NCBI GenBank assembly: GCA_951406725.2
Contig: OX597816.1
Coordinates: 153,636,001 to 153,700,000 of the forward strand
DNA length: 64,000 nucleotides
Direction: 5' to 3'
DNA from: Octopus vulgaris
Taxonomy: Eukaryota
Made by a program: the position numbers and the translations under genes. Of the stretch, positions 54,729 through 61,758 are shown one piece after another. Under the pieces are notes generated by a model. It did no database searches. It had not been told where the DNA came from and worked only from the letters and a program-made list of their open reading frames with translations. Numbering within the stretch: the first letter of the stretch is position 1; each line of letters starts with the position of its first letter.

Positions 54729-56653
54729 TTATTTTGTAATGTTTGTGTGGTTTTGTCGATTATAATGATCTTTGTACTTACATGAAACGTTTAGAGTGAC
54801 GTCAGTCAAAACAAATTTTGTCTTTGAAACGAGTTCTATGTGAATTCGATTTACTATTGACAAGTTCCCGAAAAGTTTGATTCTATTCACACCTTCGATT
54901 AAAAAATACGTATTGTTAAGTATTAAGTCTGATTTAGAGACTTTAATGAAGAAGGTTACATCGTCTGTTTTATTTATTTCAAAATGGAAAATAATATCTT
55001 GTGGATTAGTTATTTTAATTTGGACGGTACAGTAATTTCTAGAACTTGCTTGAATCATTATAGCAGATATGCAAAATGAAGGATTGTATGAAAAAAGAGG
55101 TGTTTTACCGTCACCAACTTTTATATTCGAAAGTGTTTTATTTGTATTCAATAAATAAATATCGTTCGTCAGTATACAAGTTTTGACACCCACCTGTTGA
55201 AAAGCCATTCTAAAAGAGTTAACATCAAGACCAATATAATAAGCAGCGCGAATAACATCACAAGCTCCGGTTGAAAAATCCGATGTTGGATGCCAATACA
55301 AACGATTGGCTAACATAAATGCGTGATAGGCATCTTTGATTGGAATTCTATAATCCTGGACCACGTAGTAGAATGCTTTGTTATAAATACCACAACCAAA
55401 ATGAGGGTCTAAGCTTTCGGTGTAATTATCGTAATGGTTCACAGACAGTTTATCCTTTGAGGGATCATCCAAAGATCTAAATCCTCTATCATCAGATTTT
55501 GTTATATACTTCCCTATTGACCAGTCATTTTGTCCGAGATAAGCTTCCAGAGTTTCACCTGTTATGTCAGAGAATGATTCGTCCATAGAGCCAGACTGTC
55601 CGAAATTCAAAAGACAGGAATGTTGTTCGGTGAAGCCATGTGCCACTTCATGACCTATGATATCAGCCACTGTATAAGGATAAGAAAACTCTCCTCCGTT
55701 ACCAAAATTGCATTGCTTTCCGTCCCAGAATGCATTGTCAATATCATAATATACTCCAATTATTAATTTGTTCCGTAAAATTTTAGTCCCGTACCAGGAA
55801 AGAAACATATCGAAAAGAGCACTGCCGTAATACAGAGCATCACGGGCAGGAGAATTAGCTCCATTAACTGAATCATCAAAATTATCGAAGCATTTATAGC
55901 TGACTACATTGTCAGTATCCCTATAGGTTGGACGTCCACTAAAATTGAGAACTTTTACATATTGGTTCTCCAGAAAACAGGTATTCCCTTGATTTCTCTT
56001 TACAAAAATTTTCCGATTGTCTCTGCTGTAAACAAACGTTCCACTTTTCTCATTACCACCGTGACCAGTGAGTAAATGGTTAGCAAAAGTATCAAGTTTC
56101 GACCATTGTAACAAAATATCTCCGGTATGAGCGCTTATAAGAAACGCCGGTCGCTTAACCACTTCATCAGTATATATTAGGTAATCAATTTCGTAGATCA
56201 AACTTACATCGCCGAAATCATCAACGTAAACTTTTCTGTGCGAATTATAGTTGTAAATGTTCTTTTTAAACTGACCGTGCCCAGCCGAGATGATTGCAAT
56301 ATCTAAAGCTTCTTCCTTGGTTAATGTCGCCGATAATAATTTATCCCAGTGATGATAGGTACTCAGCCCCTGGATAACAAAACCGCTTGCCAAACCGGTT
56401 AGTTCACCATTAGATTCGATTACGACCGAAAGTGTTCCATCGTAGATAGGAATATCTTTGTACAATTGTCGCAACTTTAAGATCCGAAGTCCTTGGCTCG
56501 TGTTAAATTGATCAATAACATCGAAACTGTTCGGTGGCACAAGACCAAAGAGATCTGTGAGTGCAGTTGCTTTATTCAGCCGGTAATTGTATTGTAATTG
56601 TTCTTTAACATTAATACGGTTCAAACGTCGCCCAACGGGTCTCGGCATAAGAA
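54729..56653 (-). CDS. Peptidase family M4 (thermolysin/pseudolysin/vibriolysin-like) zinc metalloprotease, main exon: FTP and PepSY propeptide, catalytic domain, about 150-aa C-terminal extension
   Basis: Motifs GHGGNEKSG, VNGANSP, DNAFWDG, HEVAH (HExxH), GSMDESFSD (third Zn ligand), DPH..GIYNKAFY and ANRLYW. Strong acceptor TTTTAATTCTTTATTTTGTCTCTACAG ends at 56654. Confidence 0.93.
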
Positions 56654-57171
56654 CTGTAGAGACAAAATAAAGAATTAAAATGAGCAAAGTATATATTCAT
56701 GCATTTCCATGTGTACACATGTACACGCGTGCGCACATACACACACACACACAAACACATTTAATTTCAGTGCAGTTCAAGTATGGGGACATGAAATCCT
56801 AAGTAACTGTAGAGGAGTGTAAGCTGTAGTTATAACCCAACCAGCCAATTTTATTATGATTTACATTATGTTACTCATTCTTCTGAATGAAAGGTAAGAG
56901 AGTGCAGTAAAATAATTTCATACACAATTTCACCTGTTACATTTTGTTCTCTCTCTCTCTCTCTCTCTCTCTCTCTCTCTCTCTCTCTCTCTCTCTCTCT
57001 CTCTGTCTCTTATATATATATATATATATATATATATATATATATATATATATATATATATATATATATATATATATATATATATATATATAGACACACA
57101 TACATTCAACACATATACGTGTGGGTGTGGGTGTGTGGGTGTGCATATGTTTATAAGTTTTTTTTCTATAT

Positions 57172-57365
57172 CCTTTTCTACTCTAGGCACAAGGCCCGAA
57201 ATTTGGGGGGAGGGGGCCAGTCAATTAGATCGATCCCAGTACACAACTGGTACTTAATTTATCGACCCCGAAAGGATGAAAGGCAAAGTCGACTTCGGCG
57301 GAATTTGAACTCAGAACATAAAGACAGACGAAAAACCGCTAAGAATTTCGCCCGGCGTGCTAACC
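57172..57365 (-). mobile_element. SINE family A within the M4 gene intron
   Basis: AACTGGTACTTAATTTATCGACCCCGAAAGGATGAAAGGCAAAGTCGAC..GGAATTTGAACTCAGAAC. Confidence 0.85.
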
Positions 57366-57721
57366 TTTATGACTAAGCTCAGAATGCCTCGGTTTGTTTG
57401 TTACTGAGGAGACTAGACGAGGTGAAACATTAACATATATTCACGCGCATGTGTATGCACATATGTATATATATATGTAGGTACGTATTTTGTATATATT
57501 ATCATGTTTTTGATTTTCCATAAATTTATTAAATGCGCATACAGACATTTAGCGCTCTTCATTTATCATTGTCATTAGTGACAAGGTTCATTATAGTTCA
57601 GATGCTGCGAATAGATCAATCTGCGATATTATCCTACCATCTTCGTTTAGTTAACCTACGATTTCTTCTGTCTTTAACTAGTCTCTTAAGACATTCTGTT
57701 GAGAGGACTTAGTGGAGATTT

Positions 57722-57935
57722 AATATACCCAAAGAGTTTTAAGATTTTTAGATCATAAATATATTTATATATATATATATATATATATATATATATATAT
57801 ATATATATATATATATATATATATATATATATATATATATATATATAATATATATATATATATACATATATATATATAATATACCCAAAGAGTTTTAAGA
57901 TTTTTAGATCATAAATATATTTATATATATATATA
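57722..57935. repeat. About 55-bp direct duplication around a (TA)n tract
   Basis: AATATACCCAAAGAGTTTTAAGATTTTTAGATCATAAATATATTTATATA occurs at about 57722 and 57878. Confidence 0.85.
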
Positions 57936-59251: not shown

Positions 59252-59309
59252 ATATATATATATATATATATATATATATGTGTGTGTGTGTGTGTGTGTG
59301 TGTGTGTAT

Positions 59310-61198
59310 TAATAATTACTGGTATCTTTATATATTAATATATTTTATATGTAAAGCATAATATGTTATATATGTGTGTATATTCTTGTAATTGTCATTT
59401 TAGTAAATAAATAAGTTGACATAATATAATGTCTAAAAGTTGATGAACCAATTATTGATCCCCTCCATTCTCTTATTGCTCTCTCTCTCTCTCTCTCTCT
59501 CTCTCTATATATATATATATATATATATATATATATATATATATATATATATATATATATATATATATATATATATATATATATATATATATATATATAT
59601 GTATGTATGTGTGTGTATGTTTGTGTGATTGTGTATCTGTATACACACACACATGTATATATGCATATATATACATGTACACACACATGCATGCATATAT
59701 ACATACATACATACATACATACATACATACATACATACATACATACATACATACATACATACATACATACATACGTGTTTGTCTGAAATAAATCGTTTTT
59801 AACGGTTGATGTAAATATCTTAAATAATAGCGAGTAAAATATTGGGTTATGATATATATATATATATATATATATATAGAGAGAGAGAGAGAGAGAGAGA
59901 GAGAGAGAGAGAGAGAGAGAGAGAAGAGAGACAGACAGACAGACAGAGAAAGATAGAATGATAGATATACATGCGTAGATATATTTATATACAAACATTA
60001 ATGTAGATAGATAGATAGATAGATAGATAGATAGATAGATAGATAGATAGATAGATAGATAGATAGATAGATAGATAGATAGATAGATAGATAGATAGAT
60101 AGATAGATAGATAGATAGATAGATAGATAGATAGATAGATGCACACACAAACACACACACACACACACACACACGCATAATAAATATATACACACACACA
60201 CGCTAACACTTTTGGATAATTTAGCATGAAAAATATAACATTTTAATTTAAAAAATTAGGTTTGCTGTACAAGGAAGTCAAAGCAGTGAAATTATTGGGA
60301 TCGATTTGAACGGTTTTCTATTCTAGATTTCTATCAGAGATTGAATACTAAACTTATGTATTTCTTTACTACCCACAAGGGGCTAAACACAGAGGGGACA
60401 AACAAGGACAGACAAAGCGATTAAGTCGATTGCATCGACCCCAGTGCGTAACTGGTACTTAATTTATCAACCCCGAAAGGATGAAAGGTAAAGTCAACCT
60501 CTAGACTTACGTCCGCACAAAAAAAGCTCGTACATATTTATAGTGTATGCACACTAAAACCCATTTAAACTGGTTAGTCTAATTTGCATTATATTCACTG
60601 CGCTATTTAGTGCACTATGAATGAATGAGTCAATTATTCCACATTATCAGTGTATGCACTCTTGTCCAAATTAGACTATTTAAGCGGCGTCCTAGTTTTT
60701 ACGGACAATAAATAGTTATAAGTTACTAATCTTTCAGTGGACAGAAAATGAGTACTCTTTGACTCGTGAAAGTCTAACAGATCATTTGTGTTCTTTCTCT
60801 CTAAAGGAGACAAAGTAACTTGTGAAGTACCAATTTTGTTTACTTTTCATAGCGAGGCTAAAATTGCATACTTTATCCTTAACAATTTGTTTATGTGCGC
60901 GTGTGCATGTGTATGCGTGTATGTGTGTGTATGCGTGTGTGTGAGTGTGTGAGTATTCATACATACACACACATATATATATATATATATATATAGAGAG
61001 AGAGAGAGAGAGAGAGAGAGAGAGAGAGAGCAATAAGAAAATGGAGGGGATCAATAGGTGGTTCATCAACTTTTGGAGATTATATTATGTCAACTTATTT
61101 ATTTACTAAAATGACAATTCCAAGAATATACACACATATATAACATATTATGCTTTACATATAAAATATATTAATATATAAAGATACCAGTAATTATA
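59310..61198. repeat. Long inverted repeat or foldback element (arms of about 170 bp unique sequence plus shared (CT)n(TA)n)
   Basis: 59310-59480 is the reverse complement of 61030-61198 with few mismatches. Confidence 0.85.
60360..60500 (-). mobile_element. SINE family A 3' fragment
   Basis: Matches 19190-19330. Confidence 0.75.
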
Positions 61199-61709
61199 TA
61201 TATATATATATATATCATATTATATTATATTATATTATATTATATTATATTATATTACTTTATATCATTTTATATACTATGTTTACTGTGTTTTTCAGCG
61301 GCAGAAAGATACAAAAGTGACATAAGGCTCGAGAATTTCGTGCATGGCACATATCACTGTCACTTTTGTAAATGTTTGCCGCTTAAAAATAAAAATAAGT
61401 ATATATGCTCATGTATTGATTTCTATTTCTTTTGTCTGTAGTGCTATGTATATATATATATATATATATATATATATATATATATATATATATATATATA
61501 TATATATATATATATATGTATGTATGTATGTATTTATATATATGTATATATATCGATACAACCATAGACATACCATACATAAACATGCTAGCGCGCACAC
61601 ACATACATCCATAGAACATAGAAACCCACACGAATAACTAAACATATTATGTACGTATAAATATATAAACATAACAGCAAGTAAGAAGAAATTAGAAGTA
61701 AATACTCAC

Positions 61710-61758
61710 TGACAACCACTTCAAAATAACACCAAAAATATATTCTAAAATATAGCAT
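61710..61758 (-). CDS. Predicted first coding exon (signal peptide) of the M4 protease
   Basis: AAACA-ATG, MLYFRIYFWCYFEVVV plus one base, then consensus donor GTGAGT at 61709. Phase 1 matches the acceptor at 56654, giving a 657-aa protein. Confidence 0.6.

Follow-up and report, generated by a model that had tools for sequence, protein, structure and literature searches.

M4 proteases are known mainly from bacteria, in which they serve for digestion or as virulence factors; several belong to shellfish-infecting Vibrio species. Here we describe a gene of this family in Octopus vulgaris, which lies on the reverse strand at positions 54,729 to 61,758 of a 64,000-nucleotide (nt) stretch of the genome (GenBank assembly GCA_951406725.2, contig OX597816.1, positions 153,636,001 to 153,700,000; hereafter the window). 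Two described systems come closest to it. Vibriolysin-type enzymes (Pseudoalteromonas MCP-02, PDB 3NQX and 3NQZ, and E495) have in common with the octopus product the layout FTP, PepSY, M4, M4_C and PPC (pre-peptidase C-terminal) domain, and the PPC domains of E495 bind protein substrates and raise its efficiency on proteins (PMC3327674, in the part available to us). LasB (pseudolysin, PDB 1EZM and 8CR3) belongs to the same catalytic subfamily and is the best PDB sequence match (E 4e-66); its matched chains (498–514 amino acids, aa) end at the catalytic domain without a C-terminal extension, and the octopus copy differs from it at the changed active-site residues described below. The octopus protein resembles MCP-02 in its catalytic fold (root-mean-square deviation, rmsd, of 1.6 Å, 36% identity) and keeps the zinc and calcium residues. 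Unlike the vibriolysins, however, it is encoded by a eukaryotic gene with a phase-1 intron, has a single PPC domain that has diverged strongly, an Asn in place of the transition-state Tyr and extra cysteines, and belongs to a family in which many members carry furin-type sites.

Closer relatives exist in databases under other names. Mollusc proteins labelled 'elastase-like', 'neutral protease-like', 'virulence metalloprotease-like' or 'hemagglutinin/proteinase-like' fall in the same clade as the octopus protein, as does a Haliotis discus hannai 'metalloprotease' (GenBank AJF36072.1), and the direct orthologue in O. bimaculoides is already auto-annotated in the public genome. When a mollusc transcriptome yields matches labelled 'virulence metalloprotease' or 'elastase', these can therefore come from host genes and need not signal infection. 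No paper on the mollusc M4 family or its origin was found in the full-text collection searched, with subscription journals mostly outside its coverage, and the family is apparently an animal branch of a known protease family that is undescribed as such. As a precedent for an old secreted animal hydrolase of likely proteobacterial origin we note the bilaterian GH13_15/24 alpha-amylases, for which an ancient proteobacterial transfer into Bilateria has been proposed (PMC7003070, part of the article), an unrelated enzyme class that serves as an analogy only. Two other literature matches were set aside: that in a Perkinsus paper is to families M41 and M48, not M4, and PMC10192322, in the part available, deals with matrix metalloproteinases only.

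The locus is a genuine spliced octopus gene. Beyond this, we consider it probable that it encodes the precursor of a vibriolysin-type M4 protease, that the precursor is secreted and self-activated as predicted, that it belongs to a mollusc-wide family derived from a single ancient bacterial transfer, and that this particular copy cuts more weakly or in an altered manner. The gene has the following parts.

61759..61958 (at least to 61958), reverse strand: 5' leader of exon 1; the contig of run X1 spans 61710–61958.
61710..61758, reverse strand: coding part of exon 1, 49 nt comprising the ATG, 16 codons in all plus 1 nt; it encodes the start of the predicted signal peptide and matches P0002 of O. 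bimaculoides at the N-terminus.
56654..61709, reverse strand: intron of 5056 nt, phase 1, GT-AG, with a GTGAGT donor and a pyrimidine-rich AG acceptor.
54729..56653, reverse strand: exon 2, 1925 nt, an open frame ending in TAA that encodes the rest of the predicted signal peptide, the propeptide, the catalytic domain and the C-terminal domain.
54713..54718, reverse strand: candidate polyadenylation signal AATAAA, 10 nt past the stop codon, its use being predicted.

Joining of exons 1 and 2 yields a 657-aa product with zero internal stops. The junction from 61710 to 56653 was exact in contigs of all four transcript-like runs aligned (X1, X2, X6 and X8, from two studies): each junction contig departs from the genome at 61710 and then carries the first 30 letters of exon 2, and in the X1 and X6 contigs the alignment ends at 56653, with a further 249 and 146 letters, respectively, mapping to exon 1. 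A contig that lacks exactly a GT-AG interval is what is expected of a spliced transcript, indicating that the gene is spliced. This evidence consists of assembled contigs, not raw reads, from runs whose RNA label is a guess, and the junction was read from two flanking alignments with no DNA control (exon 2 was uncovered in X5 and in the DNA-type run X16). An earlier note on this DNA, made from its letters only, had proposed a eukaryotic gene with an intron in its predicted signal region, had taken the TTG start of the open-reading-frame track for a splice acceptor, had placed an ATG exon with a GTGAGT donor 5056 nt upstream, and had suggested the 61710/56653 junction as a check; the contigs and the frame agree with it on every one of these points. 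No second near-identical copy of the gene was found in the genome search. The O. bimaculoides orthologue P0002, annotated as 'elastase', has an equal length and N-terminus and 96% identity (27 of 657 residues differ). In the leader, upstream ATGs at 61815, 61788 and 61768 open short reading frames of 15, 6 and 7 codons, respectively, the last of which overlaps the main start codon, so that translation could be damped.

After the N-terminal hydrophobic segment, the product was divided into FTP, PepSY, M4, M4_C and PPC regions in this order.

56394..56528, reverse strand: FTP propeptide motif (Pfam PF07504, E 1.6e-05).
56103..56324, reverse strand: PepSY propeptide domain (Pfam PF03413, E 0.15, below cut-off; model against the MCP-02 propeptide 3nqz_A, E 1.7e-12).
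55626..56048, reverse strand: Peptidase_M4 catalytic domain (Pfam PF01447, E 1.2e-19).
55185..55604, reverse strand: Peptidase_M4_C helical domain (Pfam PF02868, E 7.1e-25), which holds the third zinc ligand Glu375, Arg409 and His434.
54786..55151, reverse strand: diverged PPC domain (profile-profile match), predicted to bind protein substrate.

Pseudomonas pro-elastase was the top hit in the PDB sequence search, MCP-02 and the Legionella zinc metalloprotease were among the best, and thermolysin followed at 3e-21. An AlphaFold model of the orthologue P0002, built on a 35-row alignment (mean predicted local distance difference test score, pLDDT, 78.7), matched the mature MCP-02 enzyme 3NQX in Foldseek at E 6e-29, giving the rmsd and identity quoted above. 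The C-terminus of this model gave weak fold matches to PPC/collagen-binding domains (5sv5 and 1nqd, E about 2e-03), and a profile of 34 mollusc-clade C-termini matched a profile of 23 bacterial PPC segments with a probability of 95.9 and E 5.7e-09. When the comparison was reversed, 8 of the 34 real C-termini, the octopus copy not among them, outscored the best of 680 shuffles. Since the PPC profile gives the octopus copy on its own −0.2 bits, its C-terminal 150 aa carrying no Pfam label, and Pfam PPC is weak and present in just 2 of 9 octopus paralogues, the PPC assignment rests on the family and the fold. On these profiles and the model, we assign the C-terminal domain as a diverged derivative of PPC. 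A search of the ESM Atlas with the C-terminal part gave no usable match, and the C-terminal alignment, when compared with PDB sequences, found nothing better than E 0.4. A PPC domain is listed for the vibriolysin-type bacterial matches and not for the Legionella matches, and the PPC-bearing layout points to a vibriolysin-type enzyme with PPC rather than to LasB. The LasB/vibriolysin layout proposed earlier thus holds for the M4 subfamily and for the quoted motifs, all present in the product, whereas the PPC domain had been overlooked and the layout is more that of vibriolysin than of LasB.

The active site of the octopus copy was compared with 487 of 513 collected homologues, namely those covering the catalytic domain.

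55638..55652, reverse strand: HEXXH zinc motif (His351, Glu352 and His355 of the 657-aa product).
55605..55607, reverse strand: Asn366, which takes the place of the transition-state Tyr by alignment to PDB elastase (LasB Tyr155, thermolysin Tyr157).

The M4 zinc signature is complete, with HEXXH followed by Glu375 about 20 residues downstream. The zinc ligands, the catalytic Glu and the Arg are invariant over the 487 homologues and are all kept in the octopus copy, which also keeps Asn323, Trp326, Asp379, Arg409, His434 and the calcium-site residues. Three other positions have changed: Asn366 replaces a Tyr present in 477 of the 487 homologues and in 62 of 64 mollusc rows, Asn335 replaces an Asp present in 483 (non-Asp in 4), and Cys437 replaces a Ser present in 476, with Cys found only in the octopus copy and its orthologue. 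The orthologue in O. bimaculoides carries all three changes, whereas the next closest relative, P0003 (47% identity), retains the Tyr, indicating that the Tyr-to-Asn change is lineage-specific. The transition-state Tyr is conserved in M4 but lies outside the family definition; its number in LasB, 155, follows from a precursor offset that we take to apply to elastase. In thermolysin, His231 and Tyr157 likely stabilise the oxyanion (bioRxiv 10.1101/2023.05.30.542994, part of the text). A new disulphide between Cys363 and Cys437 is possible. Separately, P0168 and P0255, of another animal-like lineage, show an independent Tyr-to-Asn change at the equivalent active-site position.

Because the active site is altered, cutting by this copy is predicted to be weakened or redirected, and the residue comparison makes weaker cutting or a different preference likely. 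The 'intact' preproenzyme of the earlier note accordingly needs a qualification: the frame is open and the zinc ligands and the catalytic Glu, Arg and His are kept, but three near-invariant positions of the catalytic domain are changed. One could go further and regard the paralogue as a non-catalytic or nearly inactive pseudo-protease that is kept for substrate binding or regulation, given the rarity of Asn366 (non-Tyr in 10 of 487), Asn335 (4 of 487) and Cys437 (this copy and its orthologue only) together with an odd signal peptide. We regard this as unlikely, because this copy keeps the full set of three zinc ligands together with the catalytic Glu, Arg409, Asp379, His434 and the calcium-site residues, and because conservation within the protein is strongest in the catalytic domain: between the two octopus species 4 of its 299 residues differ, compared with 23 of 358 elsewhere (Fisher p 0.001), which argues for maintained function, with domain-level conservation standing here as a proxy for selection and not as a ratio of non-synonymous to synonymous rates. 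Three alleles of exon 2 were seen, all non-synonymous; one of them, at residue 496, lies within our limits of the catalytic domain. We prefer an active enzyme with altered cutting. The octopus copy is a natural test of the contribution of the transition-state tyrosine in a thermolysin-fold enzyme.

The gene is neither recent nor octopus-specific but one paralogue of an old family. Among the listed matches (in one search the best 150 of 7042), relatives were found in four mollusc classes, namely a chiton (Liolophura), six gastropod genera (Haliotis, Patella, Pomacea, Gigantopelta, Physella and Aplysia), three bivalve genera (Pinctada, Ylistrum and Ostrea) and two octopod genera (Octopus and Argonauta), indicating that any transfer predates the mollusc radiation. 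The only other named eukaryote among these matches was one Idotea record flagged as contamination. About 40 further animal-like proteins without a taxon name branch deeper than the molluscs and look eukaryotic, with several copies on one large contig and furin-type motifs. A propeptide with a furin-type R-x-K/R-R motif is seen in 14 of 47 mollusc proteins and 15 of 33 other animal-like ones, compared with 1 of the 374 remaining, bacterial-type proteins. When outer-clade proteins were compared with metagenome and GTDB contigs, no relative was found by word patterns, and later scans gave bacterial-type loci only (best-segment identity 31–42% for GTDB and 44–57% for metagenome M4 matches).

Within the octopus genome, 11 matches were found on contigs C3, C9, C11, C28 and C29, of which a Pfam search recovered 10; two of the 11 are damaged, one by an internal stop and the other by an early end. 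Every intact octopus copy has its gene body in a single exon. Measured from the conserved N-terminal motif, a phase-1 AG stands at an equivalent distance in all 11 matches, close to where the signal region ends, and both paralogues checked possess, about 5–6 kb upstream, a first exon that matches and has a phase-1 GT donor. Phase-1 introns near the ends of signal peptides are common in animal genes for secreted proteins. The equivalence of the phase-1 intron suggests that it is older than the duplication of the octopus paralogues and would have been in place when they arose. Five close M4 paralogues (L002, L003, L004, L006 and L007) form a tandem array at 36.32–36.43 Mb of C11, in which the propeptides are nearly identical, the substrate-site residues differ, and L003 stops early, at 500 residues of exon 2. 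L011, at 114.56 Mb of C9, is a paralogue from the C28/C29 group that is broken and has an internal stop.

For the origin of the family, two quick LG+C20 trees of 59 and 61 rows, hand-chosen from about 400–500 proteins, were computed over 430 columns. In these two free trees the molluscs form one clade (85 and 91 in the Shimodaira–Hasegawa-like approximate likelihood-ratio test, SH-aLRT), and most other animal-like rows join them (support 90 and 92). The animal-like rows group with the Gamma- and Betaproteobacterial vibriolysin clade apart from the Legionella group (SH-aLRT 89 and 93), and the animal-like and LasB-type bacterial rows together are split from other bacterial M4 outgroups at 99–100. 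In the highest-likelihood tree all 24 animal-like rows form one clade. These placements give solid grounds for assigning the animal family to the LasB/vibriolysin subfamily and for separating it from the rest of the bacterial M4 enzymes, and they make a bacterial origin likely, whereas nesting of the animal clade inside LasB-type bacteria is not supported. The horizontal acquisition claimed in the earlier note, which had suggested a phylogeny against bacterial and animal sequences, therefore stands in part: the closest non-animal relatives are indeed LasB/vibriolysin-type bacterial M4 proteases, but monophyly of the LasB-type bacteria was not rejected (p-AU 0.47 and 0.64 in the approximately unbiased, AU, test), and a gene that is one paralogue of a family in four mollusc classes must be ancient if it was transferred at all.

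Since the animal-like rows have bacteria on both sides, and the matches listed include no eukaryote named outside the molluscs save the flagged Idotea record, one ancient transfer from the stem is the most economical explanation. The family would then have been acquired once, by the origin of molluscs at the latest, from the stem of the LasB/vibriolysin lineage, as the trees and the distribution suggest. If true, this host-encoded mollusc M4 family would add a hitherto unrecognised class to the extracellular proteases of animals, and it would be an ancient gene capture that is well preserved. A bolder version, which we put forward tentatively and rate as not quite an even prospect, is that a PPC-bearing protease was captured once from a marine proteobacterial lineage before the molluscs diversified (the base of Spiralia or deeper being possible), that it was rewired for secretion through a signal-peptide intron and furin sites, that it founded an undescribed matrix-degrading family, and that the octopus paralogue, conserved and with a rebuilt active site, has a new specificity or a regulatory role.

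Several observations weigh against the reading as an ancient transfer of a secreted protease, besides the two scopes already given for the listed matches and for domain-level conservation. When the LasB-type bacteria are forced into one group, the first set loses 0.9 log-likelihood units (p-AU 0.472, not rejected) and the second gains 7.2 units over the quick free tree (p-AU 0.638), and in the highest-likelihood tree the branch uniting these bacteria has zero length. FastTree on the catalytic domain places the root among animal rows, as long-branch attraction would do. The trees are quick searches without bootstrap and with long outgroup branches, and a sister bacterial lineage that could be the donor was not found in them. 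The deeper animal-like clades lack taxon names (0 of 10 clusters in one listing); in two further listings 7 of 10 and 6 of 10 clusters carried a name, in every case that of a mollusc. The octopus copy itself is without the full furin motif, and its N-terminal hydrophobic 10-mer averages 2.33 with a Glu in the core, a residue that is present in 2 of 19 N-termini, those of the copy and its orthologue.

Several independent transfers into different animal lineages, the mollusc family being one of them, could be argued from P0128, P0261 and P0262, since neither free tree settles whether these three go with the bacteria or with the animals. However, these three join the animal-like rows in the highest-likelihood tree and share with them an N-terminal 'ARR(V/I)D/N' pattern and basic cleavage-like sites, and the molluscs themselves are one clade; we think this history improbable. 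The same three proteins are slowly evolving animal-like M4 proteins with a signal peptide; P0261 and P0262 have two clear PPC domains each and, together with P0128, are nearest to the bacterial layout and would serve best as probes for a donor.

Somewhat harder to maintain is vertical inheritance, in which a LasB-type M4 protease was present in the animal ancestor or in earlier eukaryotes and was lost in most lineages. The best tree sets the animal-like clade beside, not inside, the LasB-type bacteria, lineages without taxon names branch deeper than the molluscs, and retention with patchy loss has been discussed for another animal enzyme family (PMC7003070, as above in part). On the other hand, the named eukaryotes among the listed matches are molluscs only, apart from the Idotea record, the outgroups are bacterial or bacterial-type M4, and the one-exon gene body of all intact octopus copies goes together with the bacterial-type FTP-PepSY-M4-PPC layout. 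We judge vertical descent to be quite unlikely and retain the single ancient transfer.

As for function, the N-terminal hydrophobic segment is a putative signal peptide, and it is a helix, of low confidence, in the P0002 model. By analogy with established M4 biology, the precursor would enter the secretory pathway via this signal peptide, the propeptide would assist folding, self-cleavage would take place just before the GGN motif, and the mature enzyme would hydrolyse its substrate by a zinc-bound water, with the PPC domain binding a protein substrate such as extracellular matrix or food protein. Our best guess for the biological role is the breakdown of extracellular protein or matrix. A component of venom or a salivary toxin, one of the roles that the earlier note had considered possible, appears very unlikely. 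Proteases, metalloproteases among them, abound in the posterior salivary glands of octopus (PMC7693380, in part), but in the part of its supplement examined no row is named M4, thermolysin or virulence metalloprotease, the labelled metalloproteases there being astacin-like or neprilysin and several metalloprotease rows being unlabelled. A term search likewise gave no M4 entry by name in the available part of PMC7656900, and the family is common to grazers and filter feeders.

The gene is well integrated into host DNA. Its exon has a GC content of 0.365, compared with 0.372 for the window, so that the 1.9-kb exon of host-like low GC reported earlier was correctly described, and its GC content at third codon positions (GC3) is 0.33, compared with a median of 0.66 across 78 bacterial loci, 5 of which lie below 0.35. 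The locus sits on a 182-Mb contig, and the intron contains the following repeats, together with simple repeats that fill about 1005 nt.

57260..57400, reverse strand: high-copy host interspersed repeat, which we take to be SINE-like (a short interspersed element); 2403 candidates, of which 40 of 40 scored match, 39 of them elsewhere at 93–96%.
57980..59270 (approximate), forward strand: broken transposase relic with WVP and YSPNLA-type motifs plus stops, presumably mariner-like by these motifs.

Bacterial contamination or recent insertion, which the single large exon and the bacterial-type sequence might suggest, was ruled out and has a negligible chance of being correct, given the spliced contigs, the repeat-filled intron on a 182-Mb contig (already taken in the earlier note as an argument against contamination), the O. 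bimaculoides orthologue, the 10 further genome matches and the host-like GC3.

Other mobile elements were seen elsewhere in the window. Directly downstream of the gene, at 54240–54660, lies a high-copy repeat whose translation resembles the 3' end of what we take to be a long interspersed element (LINE). An unbroken 610-aa frame of a hAT/Spin-type transposase (zf-C2H2_12, Dimer_Tnp_hAT) occupies 30347–32179 on the reverse strand and may be a young or domesticated element. At 38160–43121 on the forward strand there is a near-complete LINE, in which zinc-knuckle ORF1 pieces are followed by endonuclease and reverse transcriptase divided between two frames near 41650.

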